A stretch of DNA of 64,000 bases from Terriglobia bacterium (lineage in GTDB: Bacteria; Acidobacteriota; Terriglobia; 20CM-2-55-15). Under the pieces are notes generated by a model. It was not told where the DNA came from, ran no database searches, and saw only the letters and a list, made by a program, of their open reading frames with translations. Where the stretch lies: NCBI GenBank assembly GCA_965218585.1, contig CBDCLE010000010.1, forward strand, positions 128,001-192,000, given 5' to 3'. Position numbers and translations under genes: made by a program. Of the stretch, positions 4,303-22,666 are shown one piece after another. Numbering within the stretch: the first letter of the stretch is position 1; each line of letters opens with the position of its first letter.

Positions 4303-5838
4303 GGCTCTTGTCAAGAAAGTTGTGTTTGAGGAGGGGATCATAAGTCCTCCTCAAAGCGGGATTGGAACATGGCGTTGAGCTGATGAAGAGCGGAATGGAT
4401 GGAAGTGGCCGGAGATTTCCAACGGCCGTTGTGGAGGTGAGAGACGGCCAAGCCGAGTTTGAACTTGAGGGTGTCTTCGGAGTGAAAGTAGCCGCCCGAA
4501 TTGCGGCGCATAATTTCCAGTTGTCCGTTGACGGCCTCGACGAGGTTGGTGGTGGAAAACGATTTGCGCATGAGGTCGGGATACTTGAGGAAGGCGAGAT
4601 AGTGAGTCCGTTTCTTGCGGAGCCCCGCGATCCAGGAGGGATAGTGCTGGGCGAAGCGGTCACAGAGTTCCTCGAACCCTTGGTTGCCGACATCCTCACA
4701 CCAGGAGGACTTGATGGCACGGAAGCGTTGCTGAAACTCGGCGGCGTCGGATTTGGAGAGATGGCTCTTAGCATTGCGCTGCATGTGGACGGTACAGAGC
4801 TGGATATCAGCATTGGGAAAGAAGCCTTCGCTGACCTTGAGAAGGCCGGAGAAATCGTCCTGGACGAAGATCATGACGCGTCGGAGACCGCGCTCGATCA
4901 GAGAGCGGAGAACCCCCTTCCAGTCTTCGAGATTCTCGCGGCCGGGTTTGGCAATGCAGGCCAGGACACGCTTCTTGCCGTCGCGGCCTAGACCCACCAC
5001 CAGGTAGATACAGGCCGGACGCAGCCGGTCGCCGTCGCGGAGTTCGACGTACTTGCCATCCACGAATAGGGCCAGCAGATCCGTGTCCAGTGGCCGGCTG
5101 TTGCCAAGATCGAGTTCTTCGATCAGGCCCGACGCCACCCGTTCCAGATCCTGTTGGGACCCGGACAGGCCCATCTTCTGAAGCGCCTCCCGGGCCGCAT
5201 TGACCGAACGGGATGAGGCCAGCAGTCCCAGCAAGATGGACTCGACTTCTTCAGGGTAGCCGCGCTGATACGGGGATGGTAGGTTCGCGGGACGGAAATC
5301 CCCGTTACGGGTTCGAGGGACACGGATATCGATCGGAACGCTGCCCACTTGGAGGGAGCGATCGTAAAAACCATTGGGACGGTCGTCGGGGCGGTGTTCA
5401 AGATGCAGGTCCCGTTCGGCCACACTGAGGCCCGACAACAGGGTCCCCAGTACCTCGCGCAGGCTCAGATCGGCCAGCCCGGAGGCCAGCAGGGTCTGGA
5501 TCTGTGTTTTTGTGGATTCAGAAATCTGTTCTGATGGTACGCTTTCATTCGGATCTGTAGACATTGGGTTCAACTCCATAACTGAATAACTGATGACTCA
5601 GGTCTAGGGCTCCAGCGTGAACTGGAGCCCGCTTCAATTTCAGCGGGCGACGGGGGCTGTGGAAACTGCCGGGCCTATGGAAATCGGGGGAATCGGTCGC
5701 CTTCGGCGGCTTCTTCTTGATGATTTCCACAGGCCCTTGGAACACCTCCGGCGTCCGCACAGTTCCCACAGCCCGGACGACGAATCTATCATTCTCTCTC
5801 AACTGGAAATCACGAAACACAACTTTTACGTTACTCCC
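4303..5838 (-). mobile_element. IS256-family element (copy A)
   Basis: Imperfect TIRs ..AAAGTTGTGTTT (to 4327) and AAACACAACTTT.. (ending 5838) enclose the transposase; no target duplication. Confidence 0.8.
4338..5579 (-). CDS. IS256 (Mutator) family transposase
   Basis: RNG.Y.R-like motif, RVPRTR, LFVDG, QLCTVH..RN, STTNLVE motifs. Confidence 0.9.
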   Translation of the reverse strand: MELNPMSTDPNESVPSEQISESTKTQIQTLLASGLADLSLREVLGTLLSGLSVAERDLHLEHRPDDRPNGFYDRSLQVGSVPIDIRVPRTRNGDFRPANLPSPYQRGYPEEVESILLGLLASSRSVNAAREALQKMGLSGSQQDLERVASGLIEELDLGNSRPLDTDLLALFVDGKYVELRDGDRLRPACIYLVVGLGRDGKKRVLACIAKPGRENLEDWKGVLRSLIERGLRRVMIFVQDDFSGLLKVSEGFFPNADIQLCTVHMQRNAKSHLSKSDAAEFQQRFRAIKSSWCEDVGNQGFEELCDRFAQHYPSWIAGLRKKRTHYLAFLKYPDLMRKSFSTTNLVEAVNGQLEIMRRNSGGYFHSEDTLKFKLGLAVSHLHNGRWKSPATSIHSALHQLNAMFQSRFEEDL

Positions 5839-7124
5839 AGCCTGATCCCGCGGCGCGCGGGGGAGCGAGTGAAGACGGATCGGCGCGACGCGGTGAAGCT
5901 GGCGCGGCTGCATCGGTCGGGGGAGCTGACGGCGGTGTGGGTGCCCGACGAGGAGCAGGAGGCGATGCGCGACCTGACGCGGGCGCGCGAGGACATGAAG
6001 GCGATCGAGGCCAAGGCTCGGCAGCGACTGGGGGCGTTTCTGCTGCGTCATGATCGAGTGTATCGGGAAGGCAAGAGCCGGTGGACGCAACGGCACTTTC
6101 GGTGGCTGGAGGAGCAGCGGTTCGAGCATCCGGTACAGCAGGTGGTGTTTCAGGAATACGTCGATACGGTGATGGAGGCGCGCCGCCGCGTGGCGGGCCT
6201 GGAAGGGCAGATGCGCGAGGTGTTGGAGCAGTGGTCGCTGCGTCCGATGGTCGAGGCGCTGATCGCGTTGCGCGGGGTGGATGTGGTCACGGCCATGACG
6301 GTGCTGGCCGAACTCGGGGACCTGACGCGTTTTGACTCGCCGCGCGAGTTGATGAGCTTTCTGGGGCTGGTGCCGAGCGAGCACTCCTCGGGGCCGCGGC
6401 GGCGCCAAGGAGCCATCACGAAAACAGGCAATGGACACGTGCGCCGCGTGCTGGTTGAATCGGCCTGGAGCTACCGGTTCCCTGCGCGCAAAACCAGGCA
6501 CTTGAGATGCAAGGCGAGTGCGGCGCCGCCAGCAGTGCAGGCCATCGCCTGGGCAGCCCAGAAGCGGCTGTGTGCGCGGTACCGGCATCTGTATAGCGCG
6601 GGCAAGGCGAAGTGCGTGGTCACCACCGCGGTGGCCCGCGAGCTGGTGGGGTTCATCTGGGCGATTGCTTGCGAGGTGATGGGCCGAGCCCATGCAACGC
6701 GGGCGCGGAGCTGAGAGATGGGCCGGAGTTCTCCACACCTTGCCACTGCTCCGCCGTGTATTCGAAGCACGCGGTGCCATGGACAAGGTGTGGAGAACTC
6801 CTCCGACGCCTCCCCGGGCGCAATGCCATCATGCGCTTCCGGAGCAAGGCTGGACCCAAAAAACGTAATGTGTTGGATTCAGGGCGTGGCAGGCCGGTGA
6901 GGAGAATCCTCGTGCACGCTATGAGAGGCTTGGCTCAGCCAGACCGACCCACGTCCTTAGACCGAGGCAGCTCCGCGACGAAGTGATGTCAGGTGGTAGC
7001 CAACCCACGAATATCAGAGTGATCCACCGTCGCGAATCATGCCGGCCGCGCCCTGAATCCAGCACATTGAAGGAGGCGCATTCGAGAAACGTAACGGAAG
7101 CTTGACAGGGTCAATCCATATCAG
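5839..7124 (+). mobile_element. IS110/IS1111-type element copy 1, 5'-truncated by IS256
   Basis: Near-identical (about 4 SNPs) to 19285-20570; starts mid-transposase right after the IS256 TIR; ends GGTCAATCCATATCAG. Confidence 0.9.
6715..7122 (+). ncRNA. Putative bridge/seekRNA region of IS110 copy 1
   Basis: Same structured right end as 20161-20568. Confidence 0.7.
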
Positions 7125-15223: not shown

Positions 15224-16792
15224 ATGAGCAAGAGTAACGTGAATGGACCGGAGGGTCGAGAGACGATTGAGGATCCGATAACAGAGCTACTACGAGTTGG
15301 AGCTCAGCAACTGATCCAACGCGCGGTGGAAACCGAATTGGCGGAACTGCTATCCCACCACGGCGATCGGAGAACCGAGACGGGCAACGCCGGGGTGGTG
15401 CGCAACGGTTATCTGCCTGAACGTGAACTGCAGACCGGTTTGGGGCCGGTAACGGTCCAGATCCCGAAAGTCCGAGCGAAGACTGGCGACCCGGTAACGT
15501 TCCGGTCGGCCCTGGTACCTCCCTACATTCGGAAAACGAAATCGCTGGAAGCAGCGGTGCCGTGGTTGCGGCGATGGGTCCGGGAGCGGAAGATGCGTTT
15601 GGGCTGGCACCGGCCGGGGGCGGTGGTGCCGCTGGATCCGGAACAGGCGCGGGAAGCGGAAGTGGACTGGGGGACGGGCTGGGTCCGGATGAAGGGTGAA
15701 GACGTTCAGGTCAAACTGTTCTGCATGCGGAGCCGGTACTCGGGCAAGTCGTTCGTGCGGGCGTATCCGCGGGAACGGCAGGCGATGTTCCTGGACGGTC
15801 ACATCCGGGCGTTCGGCTGGTACGGCGGCGTATTCCCGGCCGTGGTCTTCGATAACCTGAAGACAGCTGTGAGGCGGATTCTGAGGGGGAAGGCCCGGAT
15901 CGAGCAGGACCGGTTCACGGCGTTACGAGCCCACTACACCTTTGAAGCGCGGTTCTGTAATCCGGCCCGGGGCCAGGAGAAAGGTGGTGTCGAGGGCCTG
16001 ATCGGTTTCGCACGCCGGAATTTCCTGGTGCCGATTCCCGAGGTGGCCGACTTCGAGGAACTGAACGCGCAGCTGCTGGAACGCTGCGCGACCGACGAGC
16101 AGCGCCGGATCGGCGGCCGGGCCGACGCCCGCACGATCGGGGAACGGCACGCGGTCGAGAAAGAGCGCCTGTTGGCGCTGCCCGAGACGCCATTCGAAAA
16201 CACGAAGGTGGTGGGCGTGCGGATCAGCCGGTACCAGGCCGCCCAGGTGGATTCGAACCGCTACTCGGTGCCGACCGCGTATGTGGGACGCCGGCTCTGG
16301 GCCCATATCGGCTGTGACCGGGTGAGCTTTTACGCGGACCAGAAGAAGGTGGCCGAACATGCCCGCGCCTTCGGTCATAGCGACTGGCGGACCGATCCGT
16401 TGCACTACCTGGAGTTGATCCGGCGGAAGGTGGCCTCGTTTGAGAGTGCCCGCCCGATCCGGCAGTGGCGGCCCCAGTGGCCGGCCCATTACGAGACGGT
16501 GCTGGAGCGGTTGCGGGACCGGCATGGGTACAGCCGGGGCACCCGGGAGTTCATCAGCATCCTGCAACTCCACCAGGACTGGGATCTGGGCCGGGTGTCG
16601 GCCGCCGTCCAGGATGCGCTCGATGCCCACTGCGCCGAACTGGAAGCGGTGCGGCACATTCTGATGCGGGAGGACGCGCCCGCCCGATCCCATGCCCCGC
16701 TCGAGTCCGGACTGATGCCCGGGATCACGGACCGGGCGATTGCCGGAACCGATCTGAATCGATACGACCTGTTGGCTGGAGGTGTGCGATGA
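15224..16792 (+). CDS. istA: Chimeric ORF: IS256 transposase N-terminus fused in frame to IS21 IstA
   Basis: RNGYLPER..TGLG..IPKVR..FRSALVPPY (IS256) then EAEVDWG, FDNLK, PARGQEKGGVE, NRYSVP (IstA). Confidence 0.8.
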   Translation: MSKSNVNGPEGRETIEDPITELLRVGAQQLIQRAVETELAELLSHHGDRRTETGNAGVVRNGYLPERELQTGLGPVTVQIPKVRAKTGDPVTFRSALVPPYIRKTKSLEAAVPWLRRWVRERKMRLGWHRPGAVVPLDPEQAREAEVDWGTGWVRMKGEDVQVKLFCMRSRYSGKSFVRAYPRERQAMFLDGHIRAFGWYGGVFPAVVFDNLKTAVRRILRGKARIEQDRFTALRAHYTFEARFCNPARGQEKGGVEGLIGFARRNFLVPIPEVADFEELNAQLLERCATDEQRRIGGRADARTIGERHAVEKERLLALPETPFENTKVVGVRISRYQAAQVDSNRYSVPTAYVGRRLWAHIGCDRVSFYADQKKVAEHARAFGHSDWRTDPLHYLELIRRKVASFESARPIRQWRPQWPAHYETVLERLRDRHGYSRGTREFISILQLHQDWDLGRVSAAVQDALDAHCAELEAVRHILMREDAPARSHAPLESGLMPGITDRAIAGTDLNRYDLLAGGVR

Positions 16793-17580
16793 CTCCGGGT
16801 CAGGAGGTGGTCCTGGACGACGCATTGCGGCAGCTCCGGTTGCCGGCCATGGTCCGTGCCTGGCGGGAATACGGCCGGCAGGCCAAGGAAGCCGGCGAGG
16901 GGTACCCCGGCTTTCTGCTGGCTCTGGCCAGTCGTGAGTTGGAACAGCGGCAAGCCAATCAGATCCAGCGCCGGTTGCGCACGGCCCGGTTCCCACGGTT
17001 GAAAACCCTGGAAACGACCGACCTGAACAAGTGGCCGGCACTGGATGCGGTCCAGGTGCGCGACTATGCCGAGTGCGACACCATCACCCGGTGCGAGAAC
17101 GTTGTGTTGTTGGGCAAGCACGGCACCGGCAAGACTCACGCCGCGACGGTGTGGGGCGTGGAAGCCTGCCGGAGGGGCTACCGCGTCGGGTTCACCACGG
17201 CCGCGGGGCGGGTCAATTCGCTGATCGAGTCCCGTGAGGAGCGACAGTTGAAGCAGCAACTGGCGAAGTTGTCCCGCTTCGAGCTGCTCATCGTCGACGA
17301 GGTCGGCTATATCCCGTTCTCGGCCGAGGGTGCCCAGTTGCTGTTTCAGGTCTTCTCGGACCGGTACGAAAAGGGTTCCCTCATCGTGACGTCGAACCTG
17401 CCGTTTGCGCAGTGGACCAGCGTGTTCGGCGATGCCGCCCTGACCGCGGCCCTGTTGGACCGATTGACCCATCACTGCGCGATTCATCAGTTCGATTGGG
17501 AAAGCATCCGGTTCACCGAGAGTCTCGGTGCCGCCAACAAGCGGAAGAAGAAACCCCGGTCCGCCGAAGGCTCCGCGTGA
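16789..17580 (+). CDS. istB: IS21 helper ATPase IstB
   Basis: ATGA overlap with istA; Walker A GKHGTGKT; LLIVDEVGY; TSNLPF..W; ALLDRLTHH. Confidence 0.92.
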   Translation: MTPGQEVVLDDALRQLRLPAMVRAWREYGRQAKEAGEGYPGFLLALASRELEQRQANQIQRRLRTARFPRLKTLETTDLNKWPALDAVQVRDYAECDTITRCENVVLLGKHGTGKTHAATVWGVEACRRGYRVGFTTAAGRVNSLIESREERQLKQQLAKLSRFELLIVDEVGYIPFSAEGAQLLFQVFSDRYEKGSLIVTSNLPFAQWTSVFGDAALTAALLDRLTHHCAIHQFDWESIRFTESLGAANKRKKKPRSAEGSA

Positions 17581-17724
17581 AACACACGCGAGCGAGCGGC
17601 TGTGGAAAGTGCCGCCACCGTGGAAACCCGCTGCAAAGCCGGCGCGTTACCACCGCGGCTTGGAAGCTTTCGGCTTCCACACTTCCCGCAACCCCGACGG
17701 CGGATTTACTTACAAACCATTAAC

Positions 17725-17778
17725 CCGGGGGGTGGGTCCTTTTTACTCGACCGGGGTGGGCTCTTTTTACGTTGTCAA
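17725..17778 (+). repeat. IS21 right end with tandem terminal repeats
   Basis: GGGGTGGGTCCTTTTTACTCGA and GGGGTGGGCTCTTTTTACGTTG direct repeats after istB. Confidence 0.65.
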
Positions 17779-17800
17779 AGCGAGGAGTAGGCAGTGACGG

Positions 17801-18139
17801 CTAGCTGCTCACCGCCGCGTTCAACACATCACCGACCCACTGATTCAAACTCTTTCCAGCAGCGGTTGCAGCTTCTACCGCCTGCTGGTGCAGGTCCGGT
17901 GGTATGCGGATAGTGAATTTGCCAGAAAATTCCTTGCGCGGTTCTATTCCACGTTGCTCGCATGCTTTCAGAAAGACCTTAAGGGAGGTCGCTCCTTCCT
18001 TACGTAGTCCCTTAATATCGGAAGCGTAGAAGTCAGCTCCGCCGTTCAGCCCGATAAATTCCCCACGGAGCATATCGATGTCTGGATCATAGTTGACAAC
18101 TGCCTTGAAGCCGCCGATGTTCAATGTGTTGCTCATCAT
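17801..18139 (-). CDS. hicB: HicB-family antitoxin
   Basis: YDPDIDMLRGEFIGLNGGADFYA..EFSGKFTIRIPPDLH (RHH C-terminus); overlaps the hicA stop. Confidence 0.85.
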   Translation of the reverse strand: MMSNTLNIGGFKAVVNYDPDIDMLRGEFIGLNGGADFYASDIKGLRKEGATSLKVFLKACEQRGIEPRKEFSGKFTIRIPPDLHQQAVEAATAAGKSLNQWVGDVLNAAVSS

Positions 18140-18390
18140 GGTGTTACTCCGTTTGCTTTCAGCCAATCTCTAACGCTTCCAACAGCACCTTTATCGGTGG
18201 AAGGGCCAGGGTGAGGGCGATGGTACACCCGCACCTCGCCAAACAGAAAAACCACTACGCGGCTTCCTTCACGCTCCTCCAATTCAGCACCCAATCCCTT
18301 CAGCAAGCCCTTAATATCAACCCACTTTACGTTACCGCTAACAGGGCGGCTGAAGATCAGTTGGAGCGTCTTTTGGTGCTTGCGGTTCAT
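18136..18390 (-). CDS. hicA: HicA-family toxin
   Basis: MNRKHQKTL..IFSRP..W.DI..L..LGA..EREGSRV..HRPHP. Confidence 0.85.
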   Translation of the reverse strand: MNRKHQKTLQLIFSRPVSGNVKWVDIKGLLKGLGAELEEREGSRVVVFLFGEVRVYHRPHPGPSTDKGAVGSVRDWLKANGVTP

Positions 18391-18398
18391 GTCATTAC

Positions 18399-18419
18399 TG
18401 GTACCAGTATATGGTACCA
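18399..18419. promoter_or_regulatory. Probable HicAB operator (two TGGTACCA palindromes)
   Basis: TGGTACCAgtataTGGTACCA immediately upstream of hicA. Confidence 0.55.
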
Positions 18420-18443
18420 TCTCGTGGCGGTCAACGTACACAG

Positions 18444-18748
18444 CGTTGTTGCATGGATCGGGGCGGAGATGGAATTCCCCCTTGCCCCAAGCGGTAGCGT
18501 CAGGCGGTGCGTTCGAACACAGGCCGTCCGAGTGCGGTCATTGTGTTCAGGACTTTCTGGCCGAGTTGGCTCCCGTGATCTGGCTGGAGAAGCTGCGGGA
18601 TTGGAGTCTGGGGCCGATGACGCTCTTCCAACGGCCGATCTGCGTTTCTGCCGTCGGGCTGCGTTGAACTTATGCGGCATCTAAGTTATCCCTGGTGTTG
18701 AAAAACACAATGATAAGGCATCCTTCGGGATGATCCATGCAACAAGGT
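18444..18748 (-). mobile_element. Internally deleted IS5 (IS903-like) mini-element
   Basis: TIRs TTGTTGCATGGATC (18446-18459) / GATCCATGCAACAA (18732-18745); MPHKFNAARR start joined to ..KVLNTMTALGRPVFERTA end. Confidence 0.7.
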
Positions 18749-19029
18749 CCCCAATGAGCATCATCACTCCCCCTGTCGGGGTGTCGCAAAAGTCCCACGA
18801 CCCCGTAGAATTGCAACAATGACTTGTGCGACAGGGTTTTGCAACGCAATCCGCGTCCTGATCCTGCGTCGTGAGCCTTCCCCGTTACCTGTCGCGGAAC
18901 CGACCGTTTTGCGACGGTCGCACTCACGGCCTTAGACACCATGGATTGACCTGCCCTGGCCTCGTACGCGTGGGTTATGTTGCGGGGCGAGGAACCTTCG
19001 ACACAGAGCCACAACGAGGAGGGCAGGTC

Positions 19030-20160
19030 ATGAACAAGTGTAGTGCATACGTTGGACTGGACGTTCACAAGGACACGATCGCGGTGGCGGTAGCGCTGCC
19101 CGGACGTGAGGCGCCGGTGTACCGGGGCGAGATCAAGAATCAACGCAAATCGCTGCTGCGACTCATTCGCAGCCTGAGTCCGCACGCAGAGGTGTTGAGC
19201 TTCTGCTACGAGGCGGGACCGTGCGGGTATGGGGTGTATCGAGAGATCATCGACACCGGCCACTATTGCGAGGTGGTCGCGCCGAGCCTGATCCCGCGGC
19301 GCGCGGGGGAGCGAGTGAAGACGGATCGGCGCGACGCGGTGAAGCTGGCGCGGCTGCATCGGTCGGGGGAGCTGACGGCGGTGTGGGTGCCCGACGAGGA
19401 GCAGGAGGCGATGCGCGACCTGACGCGGGCGCGCGAGGACATGAAGGCGATCGAGGCCAAGGCTCGGCAGCGACTGGGGGTGTTTCTGCTGCGTCATGAT
19501 CGAGTGTATCGGGAAGGCAAGAGCCGGTGGACGCAATGGCACTTTCGGTGGCTGGAGGAGCAGCGGTTCGAGCATCCGGTACAGCAGGTGGTGTTTCAGG
19601 AATACGTCGATACGGTGATGGAGGCGCGCCGCCGCGTGGCGGGCCTGGAAGGGCAGATGCGCGAGGTGTTGGAGCAGTGGTCGCTGCGTCCGATGGTCGA
19701 GGCGCTGATCGCGTTGCGCGGGGTGGATGTGGTCACGGCCATGACGGTGCTGGCCGAACTCGGGGACCTGACGCGTTTTGACTCGCCGCGCGAGTTGATG
19801 AGCTTTCTGGGGCTGGTGCCGAGCGAGCACTCCTCGGGGCCGCGGCGGCGCCAAGGAGCCATCACGAAAACAGGCAATGGACACGTGCGCCGCGTGCTGG
19901 TTGAATCGGCCTGGAGCTACCGGTTCCCTGCGCGCAAAACCAGGCACTTGAGATGCAAGGCGAGTGCGGCGCCGCCAGCAGTGCAGGCCATCGCCTGGGC
20001 AGCCCAGAAGCGGCTGTGTGCGCGGTACCGGCATCTGTATAGCGCGGGCAAGGCGAAGTGCGTGGTCACCACCGCGGTGGCCCGCGAGCTGGTGGGGTTC
20101 ATCTGGGCGATTGCTTGCGAGGTGATGGGCCGAGCCCATGCAACGCGGGCGCGGAGCTGA
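19030..20160 (+). CDS. IS110-family DEDD recombinase/transposase
   Basis: VGLDVHK, YEAG, KTDRRDA (DEDD); GLVPSEHSSG serine loop; ITKTGN. Confidence 0.95.
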   Translation: MNKCSAYVGLDVHKDTIAVAVALPGREAPVYRGEIKNQRKSLLRLIRSLSPHAEVLSFCYEAGPCGYGVYREIIDTGHYCEVVAPSLIPRRAGERVKTDRRDAVKLARLHRSGELTAVWVPDEEQEAMRDLTRAREDMKAIEAKARQRLGVFLLRHDRVYREGKSRWTQWHFRWLEEQRFEHPVQQVVFQEYVDTVMEARRRVAGLEGQMREVLEQWSLRPMVEALIALRGVDVVTAMTVLAELGDLTRFDSPRELMSFLGLVPSEHSSGPRRRQGAITKTGNGHVRRVLVESAWSYRFPARKTRHLRCKASAAPPAVQAIAWAAQKRLCARYRHLYSAGKAKCVVTTAVARELVGFIWAIACEVMGRAHATRARS

Positions 20161-20568
20161 GAGATGGGCCGGAGTTCTCCACACCTTGCCACTGCTCCGC
20201 CGTGTATTCGAAGCACGCGGTGCCATGGACAAGGTGTGGAAAACTCCTCCGACGCCTCCCCGGGCGCAATGCCATCATGCGCTTCCAGAGCAAGGCTGGA
20301 CCCAAAAAACGTAATGTGTTGGATTCAGGGCGTGGCAGGCCGGTGAGGAGAATCCTCGTGCACGCTATGAGAGGCTTGGCTCAGCCAGACCGACCCACGT
20401 CCTTAGACCGAGGCAGCTCCGCGACGAAGTGATGTCAGGTGGTAGCCAACCCACGAATATCAGAGTGATCCACCGTCGCGAATCATGCCGGCCGCGCCCT
20501 GAATCCAGCACATTGAAGGAGGCGCATTCGAGAAACGTAACGGAAGCTTGACAGGGTCAATCCATATC
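20161..20568 (+). ncRNA. Putative bridge/seekRNA (target- and donor-binding loops at ~20347-20480)
   Basis: Nested stems; loop segments match both insertion flanks and the circle junction (see findings). Confidence 0.75.
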
Positions 20569-21279
20569 AGCGTGCAAAATCGCACCGATCTGCCTGATAC
20601 CCTATCTTCACCACACTGCCGGTGGTGCCGGTGACCCAGTGATTTTCAGGCGATAGCGTGAGTGGGGTTGACTGCGGCGTGGATTGCAGCTGGATGAATC
20701 CTTCCGTCGCTTGTCCGAGTCTGGCGATGCGCTCGACATGGCTTGTTTCCAGCTTGCCTATGCGATCAACTCACCTGACTCCACCTTACCTGCGCGCTCG
20801 CGCAGGGCGGCAATGTCCCTGGAACGCGCTTAAGCTTCGGGTCCCACCTCTTCAGGCGAGATCCAGGCGAGCAACAGGCGGGGCCGATTGCCGCAGGGCA
20901 GATGGGTGTCGATCCCGGCGGACATCCCGAGCGTGCAGGGTCCGTTGCGCCGGACATACCGATACCGGTGACCGGGGGTGGGTGCGGGGCAGAGAACACG
21001 GTGCCAGGAGCCGCGCCATGAAACCCGGATCGGGAACCGCTTCACTGGCCCCGTCAAGCGGGTCCCGCTGATCGAAACGGGAGAAAGGGCGCTGCGCCTG
21101 GGGTGAGTGCTCGGGGGCTTGCTTCACAAGCCCGTCCGAGAGCAAAAGGGATGACCCCGGCCGCCGGGTTCCGATCGATATGTTTGCGCCGGGCCGAAGA
21201 ACCGAACCGACGATCCTTCTATAGAAGGGTACTGACCAGATTCGTGTAGAGTCGCGGGGAGGCGCGTAGCCGGTAGGGG

Positions 21280-21432: not shown

Positions 21433-21993
21433 CTACTTGTCCTCGGCCTTGCCAAGGCTTTGATACTTCTTTGCGAAGCGGGCTTCCATCTTCTTAATCT
21501 TCTCCGATCGTTCTGAATGACGCTGCATGACCTTCTCGCCCGCAGGCTTCGCGTATTGCTCGTCTTCAGTGATTCGCTCTCCGTCGTAGAACATCCAGGC
21601 CCACTGCAGCATGGCCTTAATAAAATCTGGATGGTCGGGCACCAAGATATCGTGGTTCGCGATCGCCTTCAGGATCGCACCGAGAGCGGCAACGTCTGGA
21701 TCGAGCGGCACTTGGTCCTCAGCCCCTTCATCCATATGCTTCAGGTCATTGATCTTCAGCGTGTCGTTAATGTGCTTGGCAAACTTCGCCTTCGCTGGTG
21801 TTGTCCCAGATATAACCTCCGTAACTCCAATTGCGTAGTCTGCGAACGGTTGCTTTCCTGCTTTCAGAACAAGACCGTGAAGGATGCCGTCGGCAGCACC
21901 CGCCAACGTGATTGCAGAGATCCTGTCCCTGCGGCTCACAAACAGACCGATTGCAGTCTCAAGTTGGCGTTGCGCCAGCTCCAATTTGGTCAT
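21433..21993 (-). CDS. Hypothetical all-helical protein
   Basis: 186-aa ORF from MTKLELAQRQLETAIGLF..ISAITLAGAA..NDLKH. Confidence 0.6.
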   Translation of the reverse strand: MTKLELAQRQLETAIGLFVSRRDRISAITLAGAADGILHGLVLKAGKQPFADYAIGVTEVISGTTPAKAKFAKHINDTLKINDLKHMDEGAEDQVPLDPDVAALGAILKAIANHDILVPDHPDFIKAMLQWAWMFYDGERITEDEQYAKPAGEKVMQRHSERSEKIKKMEARFAKKYQSLGKAEDK

Positions 21994-22019
21994 CGTTGTT
22001 TCAGCCAACTCCGACCTCC

Positions 22020-22321
22020 AAAGTCTGATCGACACACCAAGATTTGTGGGTTGGCTTGAGATGACGGCGCAACCGCCCCTCCAGTTAGGGACCGTAGCGC
22101 TGGACCCAGTGCCAGATTGTCGTGTGGTCTGCCTTCAGGCCGCGCTCGCCGAGGAGCTTTTTGACATCGCGGAACAAGAGCGAGTACCGCAGGTATCAGC
22201 GCACAGCGCAAAGAATCAGCTCGGGCTCGGTTTGTCGCCACTTGAAGATCACCGGTCGGATTGTCTTTTTCATGATCTCTTCAGTTTACCCGCCGCCGTC
22301 GGCCAAAGTTGCACCACAATC
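22020..22321. mobile_element. IS6-like relic
   Basis: Ends in AAAGTTGCACCACAA, resembling an IS6 TIR; degenerate internal sequence. Confidence 0.4.
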
Positions 22322-22339
22322 GATGCACAGTCTTTATTT

Positions 22340-22360
22340 TGCTGGCACGTATTGCTAGCA
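22340..22360. promoter_or_regulatory. Probable FitAB/VapBC operator
   Basis: TGCTGGCA and TGCTAGCA boxes upstream of the antitoxin. Confidence 0.45.
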
Positions 22361-22408
22361 TATATTGGGATTGCAAGTCGATACAACGTCCGACAAGGAG
22401 ACGCCGCG

Positions 22409-22666
22409 ATGAATTCCACCATCACCGTCCGCGATATCGATCCAGGAGATAAGTCCTGGCTCAAACACGAAGCCCGCCATGTCGGTGTTTCGATGGAAGA
22501 GTTCGTGCGCCGCCTCATTCGCGAGGAGCGCGAGAAGCGCGAACGATCTACAAAGCCTTCCGAGGCCTTCAAGCGATATTTCGGTCCTGAGCACGGGGTC
22601 GAGCTGCCGGCGTCCGCGCGTTACTCCTACACGCCGGTCGAGTTTTCCGACGAGAGCAAAACGTGA
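22409..22666 (+). CDS. FitA-like ribbon-helix-helix antitoxin
   Basis: AAGGAG RBS; ITVRDID..L..EA...GVSMEEFVRRLI; GTGA overlap with the PIN gene. Confidence 0.8.
   Translation: MNSTITVRDIDPGDKSWLKHEARHVGVSMEEFVRRLIREEREKRERSTKPSEAFKRYFGPEHGVELPASARYSYTPVEFSDESKT

Follow-up and report, generated by a model that had tools for sequence, protein, structure and literature searches.

A covarying two-loop RNA encoded 3' of the transposase gene in a probable IS1111-type element from a Terriglobia bacterium, and the length of its target guide

Introduction

It was reported in 2024 that IS110 and IS1111 recombinases are programmed by an RNA that the element itself encodes, and that in the IS1111 group this RNA lies 3' of the gene. 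Here we analyse a stretch of 64,000 nucleotides (the window) from a Terriglobia bacterium (GTDB lineage Bacteria; Acidobacteriota; Terriglobia; 20CM-2-55-15; assembly GCA_965218585.1, contig CBDCLE010000010.1, positions 128,001 to 192,000 of the forward strand), which holds an IS110-family element on its plus strand at 18936-20570. The question raised by this locus is whether the 3' non-coding end of the element encodes guides for target and donor, and how many letters of the target these guides specify. A preliminary description, made from the letters of the window, had proposed an IS110/IS1111 element with a target loop and a donor loop encoded in its 3' end. The protein domains, the covariation of the RNA structure and the agreement of guides with flanks and of donor loop with element ends, all described below, bear this out. 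We conclude that 18936-20570 is very probably an active IS1111-type element of the IS110 family, with a DEDD/serine recombinase aimed by a 3'-encoded bridge RNA (seekRNA). The direct observations behind this conclusion are the anatomy of the element, its copy number, a covarying fold, guides that covary with flanks and with ends, and empty sites with a single AG.

The locus is a well-documented further example and leaves the understanding of the mechanism unchanged. Its contribution is a natural data set that gives the guide length from covariation (left -1 to -3/-4, AG, right +1 to +5), together with a compact conserved scaffold that includes the closing helix. These could aid the mining of bridge-recombinase orthologues with a defined guide geometry, and annotators gain a covariance model of an RNA that has no Rfam family.

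The element and its transposase

With the shared AG counted once, the element measures 1635 bp. It starts with ACACC-ATGGATTGACC and ends with GGTCAATCCAT-ATC-AG, the left junction reading CACGGCCTT-AG|ACACC and the right junction ATATC-AG|CGTGCA. The AG core at the left junction (18934-18935) is common to target and element, and the convention of the Hall laboratory counts it as the opening 2 nt of a left extension of 7 bp, AGACACC (18934-18940). The left subterminal inverted repeat ATGGATTGACC (18941-18951) and the right one GGTCAATCCAT (20555-20565) are perfect 11-bp reverse complements of each other; the latter is followed by the right extension ATC and the AG core of the right junction (20566-20570, AG at 20569-20570). 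Only 94 nt of non-coding DNA lie upstream of the gene (18936-19029), versus 410 nt downstream (20161-20570), and this whole 3' region folds with a z-score of -6.7. The element and every feature that the preliminary description had named in it are present in the sequence where it had placed them.

The transposase gene (19030-20160, plus strand) encodes 376 amino acids with a DEDD/RuvC-like N-terminal domain and a Transposase_20 domain. Matches to Pfam PF01548 (58 bits, cut-off 29, 1.3e-15) and PF02371 (73.4 bits, cut-off 21.3, 1.9e-20), and to the NCBIfam model NF033542, 'IS110 family RNA-guided transposase' (264.7 bits, cut-off 140), place the predicted protein among the DEDD transposases of the IS110 family. 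Candidate catalytic residues are D11 (GLDVH), E61 (CYEAG), D99/D102 (KTDRRDA) and S269-G270 (GLVPSEHSSG). The corresponding words align with those of the solved ISCro4 chain 9t56_A and also with IS621, the other match in the Protein Data Bank (E 4.5e-7). By transfer of roles from IS621, the D/E/D/D residues and the serine of the SG motif are the candidate catalytic set.

A conserved two-loop RNA structure 3' of the gene

In the single-sequence fold, 20312-20340 pairs with 20487-20515 through 28 pairs and one 1x1 mismatch, agreeing with a closing helix of ~27 bp proposed earlier at 20314-20340/20487-20513. A protein-guided scan of one genome per species yielded 80 loci under many phylum labels, with proteins 59-97% identical. 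Alignment of 37 of their 3' regions gave a consensus fold and a covariance model, R1. The consensus consists of the outer helix followed by two modules, each built of a stem, an internal loop and a further stem: the first has GGAG/CTCC and CCTC/GAGG, an internal loop and a distal hairpin, and the second has GCGACG/CGTCGC, an internal loop and a GGTGG/CCACC hairpin. In the window the RNA region covers about 20307-20524 (~216 nt). The outer helix is formed by 20312-20340 (5' strand) and 20487-20515 (3' strand), and the basal stems of the target loop by 20347-20358 (GGAG 20347-20350, CCTCG 20354-20358) and 20409-20420 (CGAGG 20409-20413, CTCC 20417-20420).

On the consensus structure 93.9% of the cells are pairing, versus 40-48% when the partners are slid by 1-3 columns. 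Double changes occur in 24 of 40 pairs, among them all 16 pairs of the outer helix (columns 28-34 and 40-49). None of 500 shuffles reached the observed pairing, double-change counts or covariation score (four of five measures), while the observed number of further pair types was reached by 24 of 500. R1 matches 78 of the 80 homologous loci. The misses are L050, with 36 nt after the gene, and L019, whose protein is 97% identical and which lacks an RNA match because this 3'-truncated copy breaks off after element position ~1180. At E up to 10, a scan of 18700-20800 against Rfam returned nothing beyond microRNA and snoRNA noise below threshold, and Rfam 15 holds no matching family. A conserved, covarying two-loop RNA structure is therefore encoded 3' of the gene. 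Across the subfamily, which occurs in metagenome-assembled genomes (MAGs) and isolates labelled as many phyla, the ends are nearly invariant (AG-ACAT...ATATC-AG) and the target loops differ widely.

The scaffold had been called large. Long seekRNAs are given as 145-170 nt in the text of Siddiquee et al. 2024 (PMC11187229) and as 148-172 nt in a review table; the RNA described here agrees with them in size, its extra length coming solely from the closing helix, so that this part of the preliminary description does not hold.

The 3' region holds one further structure, a 77-nt hairpin directly after the stop codon (20171-20247), which the single-sequence fold returns at exactly the position proposed earlier. 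It is found in all copies in this genome and, among the relatives fetched, only in L020 and L021, the two closest. We considered whether this hairpin could be an independent mobile palindrome and rejected the idea, as it is confined to copies of the element apart from one orphan piece. That piece, 57 nt at C1:48163-48219, is identical to 20208-20264 of the window, in the region of the hairpin, and no other part of the element adjoins it.

The target loop and the length of its guides

The right target guide, TGCACG+CT (TGCACGCT, 20359-20366), is complementary to the top strand of AG+CGTGCA and is the exact reverse complement of AGCGTGCA. A distal stem-loop (20367-20399) that includes the conserved word CCCnCG separates it from the left target guide, TCCTT+AG (20400-20406), which has the same sense as the left flank GCCTT+AG; over the longer stretch CACGTCCTTAG (20396-20406), 10 of 11 letters match that flank. 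Both agreements, the perfect right one and the 10/11 left one, had been pointed out before and are confirmed in the sequence. Relatives have the same layout. Directly behind the conserved CCTCG they carry 8 nt that finish with CT and read as the reverse complement of AG followed by their own right flank, and the letters before a conserved AGA(C/G) end in (T/A)AG and repeat their own left flank.

Comparing loops with flanks across homologues had been proposed as a check. We carried it out on 58 distinct sets of guides and flanks, with the loops located by alignment and covariance model. On the left side, the guide matched its own flank at position -1 in 57/58 sets (0.98, versus 0.85 when flanks were permuted), at -2 in 50/58 (0.86 versus 0.31), at -3 in 33/58 (0.57 versus 0.26) and at -4 in 21/58 (0.36 versus 0.25). 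On the right side, where the permuted value was about 0.3 throughout, the matches were 50/58 at both +1 and +2 (0.86 each), 48/58 at +3 (0.83), 45/58 at +4 (0.78) and 36/58 at +5 (0.62). Further out, starting at left -5 and right +6, there was no difference between own and permuted flanks. None of 10,000 permutations reached the observed score, and an earlier run on 33 loci agrees. Since the covariation ends at left -3/-4 and right +5, the programmable footprint amounts to ~3-4 + AG + 5, or 10-11 bp.

The insertion sites within this genome have a still shorter stretch in common: each of the 6 left flanks has TTAG at its end, and each of the 8 right flanks has CGT at its start. Beyond these letters the left flanks vary (ccTTAG, tcTTAG, gaTTAG, atTTAG), and so do the right flanks (CGTgca, CGTacg, CGTgtg, CGTagg), leaving TTAG|CGT as the only letters common to all. 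A target match of ~17 nt, as claimed in the preliminary description, is thus not supported, either by the extent of covariation in the 58 sets or by the flanks of the genome's own copies. The copy in the window does match its flanks at 17 of 19 positions, but this figure overstates the guide, because the left CACG falls within the scaffold word CCCnCG of the distal stem and no other copy in the genome matches at those positions.

These data also bear on whether the target could be chosen by contacts between protein and DNA, with the matches between loop and flank being coincidence or hitch-hiking. The roughly 7 bp common to the sites of this genome are a length that a protein could read by itself. 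Against this, the guides change together with the flanks across the 58 sets, which come from many unrelated hosts, at a level that none of the 10,000 permutations attained, and each strand of the loop follows a different side of the target. Within the window alone, 5000 dinucleotide shuffles of 20161-20545 gave an 8/8 right match in 25 cases, a left match of at least 10/11 in 6 and both together in 0; the family-wide controls are stronger than this single-window shuffle. We regard target choice by protein contacts as highly improbable, and guidance by the RNA loop is the reading that we follow below.

One Paracoccaceae MAG carries five copies of a relative (L033, L035, L037, L041 and L043), with proteins 69-70% identical to the present transposase. 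Their guides (ATCACG-CT, ATCTT-AG) are nearly those of the element in the window and their flanks read cTTAG|(C/T)GTg; nature has here replicated this target type independently, and mismatches are tolerated to a similar degree.

The donor loop and the ends of the element

The second module, the donor loop, occupies 20420-20480 and is closed by the stem CGCGACG (20420-20426) / CGTCGCG (20474-20480). Its 5' strand carries GATGTC (20431-20436), followed by an inner stem-loop, and its 3' strand carries ATATCAG (20457-20463), which is identical to the right end plus core. The identity of ATATCAG with the donor junction and the partial antisense of GATGTC to the left end had both been noted from the sequence, and both hold. 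In 36 of the 37 aligned sequences the heptamer of the RNA equals the right end plus core. Where the right end is ATACCAG instead, the RNA also has ATACCAG, in 5 of 5 such sequences; all five are labelled Halomonas, so this change may be one inherited event. As judged from these sequence matches, the second loop corresponds to the element's own joined ends, fully on its 3' strand and in part on its 5' strand, which in the copy of the window sets GATGTC opposite GGTGTC. The right-donor guide of IS621 is, according to the text of PMC11208160, likewise discontiguous and imperfect.

The regular expression by which both ends were located in relatives requires AG and its adjoining letters; for the end sets selected in this way, the presence of AG in all is therefore true by construction. 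A search for inverted repeats that did not require AG found these letters next to the repeat in every case where the longest repeat was the true one. In four relatives (L061, L063, L056 and L057) the right end is duplicated, with the last ~77 nt present twice or a second right-end word further downstream, which makes their true outer boundary ambiguous.

Copies and empty sites in the genome

The assembly contains 5 full, near-identical copies of the element that differ at 10 positions in total, none of them in 20307-20524 and none in the ends. In addition it contains 3 5'-truncated copies, one 5' fragment and the 57-nt orphan described above. The covariance model finds 8 copies of the RNA in the genome, all with equal score, and the RNA region is identical in all full and 5'-truncated copies. 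Together with the Pfam and NCBIfam matches of the transposase, the five near-identical full copies agree with the earlier proposal of an intact, recently active element.

Empty sites were found in three forms. A contig of run X21 jumps from 18910 to 20576, the letters between being ...CTTAGCGTGCA; the empty form also occurs as a loose end, CACGGCCTTAGCGTG; and position 103814 of contig C4 is an unoccupied paralogue, within the same genome, of the site of another copy, with one AG. The empty site reconstructed earlier likewise has a single AG, before CGTGCA. The single AG in the empty forms, compared with an AG at both junctions of the inserted element, means that AG is shared by element and target and that insertion proceeds without target duplication; the AG core agrees with the preliminary description.

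Some further observations concern the surroundings of the target. In run X1 the summed contig depth is 2946 over the right flank (20571-20655), ~370 over the left flank and ~50-330 inside the element. Among the loose ends there is a different common left partner, ending ...CGCTT before AG-CGTGCAAAA, and a diverged paralogue lies at C4:153966-154010. The target may be part of a sequence that is repeated in that community.

Proposed mechanism, expression and RNA processing

We infer RNA production and processing, protein binding, the circle intermediate and strand exchange by analogy with ISEc11, ISPa11, ISKpn4 and IS621. On this basis, excision of the element as a circle would join TTGACA, an outward-facing candidate -35 hexamer in the right end (20548-20553), to a -10-like hexamer in the left end, forming a promoter that would exist only across the circle junction. 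TTGACA had been reported at 20548 and is present there. For this copy the circle junction would read TTGACA, 18 nt, CACCAT. Of 47 distinct end pairs, 43 carry TTGA[CA]N in their right end, where CATNAT-type hexamers would stand 17-18 nt away across the junction, and junction promoters are reported for elements of the IS1111 family (PMC11187229). The junction promoter would drive the transposase gene, and the RNA would be made by read-through. In the RNA (about 20307-20524), the closing helix would surround the target-loop and donor-loop modules, and the 5' strand of the donor loop, GATGTC, would pair in part with the top strand across the core and the left end. The RNA-protein complex would then recombine the circle junction with a cTTAG|CGTr target. 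Recombination would take place at the shared AG and leave no target duplication, the serine presumably mediating strand exchange at the core. Four terminator-like sites were also found, all of them inside the gene, and were judged to be chance occurrences.

In RNA libraries of two studies, one contig spans 20341-20522 (183 nt) and one spans 20338-20488 (151 nt), and a further contig covers part of the gene. The first two both start where the closing helix has its inner end, and the size of 151 nt resembles that of long seekRNAs (148-172 nt). The ends of contigs can reflect assembly, and such contigs prove neither transcription nor the ends of an RNA; likewise, parts of the element without cover in RNA runs are no evidence either way. 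No joint leading back from the right end to the left end was listed among the contigs of 4 runs, which is uninformative as contigs drop rare forms. The contig at 20338-20488 comes from run X21 (depth 6.4) and carries four differences, among them C>T at 20396 and G>A at 20406, which is the second letter of the AG in the left target guide; it may represent a variant with an altered core letter, or an error.

Several observations weigh against an active, RNA-guided element as proposed here. The target-loop stems GGAG/CTCC and CCTC/GAGG are seen only in the consensus fold of the 37 relatives and are absent from the minimum-energy fold of the single sequence. The 5' strand of the donor loop, (A/T)GTC(A/T/C), complements core plus left end (reverse complement ATGTCT) only in part, and in one clade it is TGACA or TGAAA. 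The -10 hexamer at the circle junction of this copy matches at 3 of 6 positions, and a sigma-70 scan of the linear element gave 0 promoter-like sites. As a sign of RNA expression the RNA-library contigs are a weak hint, such libraries being able to hold DNA. Finally, the 8 right flanks comprise 5 distinct sequences, and since some of them repeat one another, the independent insertions number fewer than 8.

The contigs raise the possibility that the mature RNA is made without the outer helix, and that the 28-bp helix and the 77-nt hairpin are instead double-strand processing sites that release an RNA of ~150 nt from the transposase transcript. The two contigs, from separate studies, start at 20341 and 20338, and one ends at 20488, at the inner ends of the helix. 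Published long seekRNAs measure 145-172 nt and are regarded as processing products of the transposase transcript. One contig of run X1, of unrecorded library kind, crosses 20338, and no loose end falls at either inner end of the helix among the rows listed. However, contigs cannot show RNA ends and the other contig extends to 20522, while the strong covariation of the helix, with every outer pair double-changed, is compatible with either role. We consider such processing possible but doubtful. As a still more tentative extension, helix (up to 28 bp) and hairpin might act together as a module that cuts a bridge RNA of ~150 nt (about 20338-20488) from the transposase transcript. The output of guide RNA would in that case be tied to the junction promoter, and a mature RNA with an unusually short guide (about 3-4 + AG + 5) would explain the loose cTTAG|CGTr targets.

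Relation to known systems

The text of PMC11187229 describes IS1111 elements by subterminal repeats of 11-13 bp with a left extension of 7 (or 6) bp and a right extension of 3 bp, a longer non-coding region downstream of the gene, the motif GL-P----S(t)G, and a top-strand match 5' of the bottom-strand match. The element in the window has 11-bp repeats, the extensions AGACACC (7 bp, with AG counted to the left end) and ATC (3 bp), its 410-nt non-coding region downstream, GL-P----SG, and the top-strand match 5' of the bottom-strand match. It could nevertheless use the same mechanism while belonging to a lineage of the IS110 group with a downstream RNA, the exceptional group of Siddiquee et al., and not to IS1111 proper. 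In favour of this placement, its 376 amino acids fall outside the 330-350 quoted for IS1111-family transposases in PMC11187229, its identity to transposases labelled IS4321/IS5075 is ~25% over ~61% of the length, and its nearest named relative, ISEc45, is 47.8% identical. The IS1111 hallmarks just listed, from repeats and extensions to the order of the guides, speak against it, and we consider it unlikely. Assignment to the IS1111 type is the reading that we prefer.

As far as the text of PMC11187229 describes them, ISEc11, ISPa11, ISKpn4 and ISPst6 share with the present element a DEDD transposase with GL-P----SG, 11-13-bp subterminal repeats, 7/3-bp extensions, the lack of a target duplication, a circle-junction promoter and a long RNA form of 145-172 nt. 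Unlike the transposase of ISEc11, which has 339 amino acids, that of the window has 376. The element is further set apart from this group by its 410-nt non-coding region with the extra hairpin after the stop codon, by its AG core and by its target, cTTAG|CGTr. In the present element both loops sit within a covarying closing helix of up to 28 bp; here the comparison with the ISEc11 group relates to the published text.

With the bridge RNA of IS621, as described in the text of PMC11208160 and of Hiraizumi et al. 2024 (PMC11208158), the present RNA shares two internal loops and an imperfect, discontiguous right donor guide, and the transposases share a catalytic D/E/D/D plus serine. IS621 differs in that its RNA precedes the gene, lying within the left end, and has the left guide 5' to the right guide. 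It also differs in its CT core, in its subterminal repeats of 2-3 bp and in its protein, which has 328 amino acids in the solved chain 8wt6_A and only weak similarity to the present transposase. Bridge RNAs in the right end were predicted in 93.0% of IS1111 elements by Durrant et al. 2024 (PMC11208160), who show three examples, ISAzs32, ISCARN28 and ISPa11. A literature search for ISAzs32, ISCARN28 and ISEc45 returned no description of their RNAs beyond the paper of Durrant et al.

Among the named relatives found, ISEc45, so labelled in the NCBI annotation of E. coli plasmids, comes nearest, its identity extending over 95% of the protein. Like the present element it has an outward TTGACA beside the subterminal repeat and a 3' non-coding region, and R1 gives a weak full-length match directly after its gene (27.4 bits, E 1.5e-5). 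Its ends are different, however, and the conserved loop and scaffold words of the present subfamily are absent. An element on an Azospirillum plasmid (L100, NZ_CP059451.1) stands closer, with 57.6% protein identity and an R1 match of 102 bits (E 2.3e-25); by eye it has the same scaffold words and closing helix, whereas its ends and donor loop differ (CATGAGA type). In the plasmid collection the close matches, L100 included, are labelled 'IS110 family transposase' only.

Truncated copies and neighbouring genes

A second copy of the element, 5'-truncated, lies in the window at 5836-7124 on the plus strand. It comprises element positions 347-1635 and has an identical RNA region at 6861-7078. Its 5' cut adjoins an open reading frame (ORF) of the Mutator/IS256 transposase family (4338-5579, PF00872, 1.5e-53). 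The missing 5' part (positions 1-357) is found on another contig, at C19:188601-188957, so that the two parts overlap by 11 nt, and beside it there is sequence that resembles the other end of the same intruder. The 11-nt overlap and the intruder-like neighbour indicate that one copy was split by a second insertion sequence, its halves now lying on different contigs. At C9:158689-160414 two 5'-truncated copies stand head to head and meet at 159254 (positions 1070-1635 reversed, then 475-1635), with similar right flanks on both outer sides. They form a large palindrome, which is either a real inverted duplication or an assembly artefact.

The neighbourhood of the element in the window (16792-18441 and 21884-22666) is rich in mobile and addiction genes. 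They include an IstB-like IS21 helper (PF01695, 8.5e-72) and a HicB/HicA pair, and one ORF has a FitA-like antitoxin domain.

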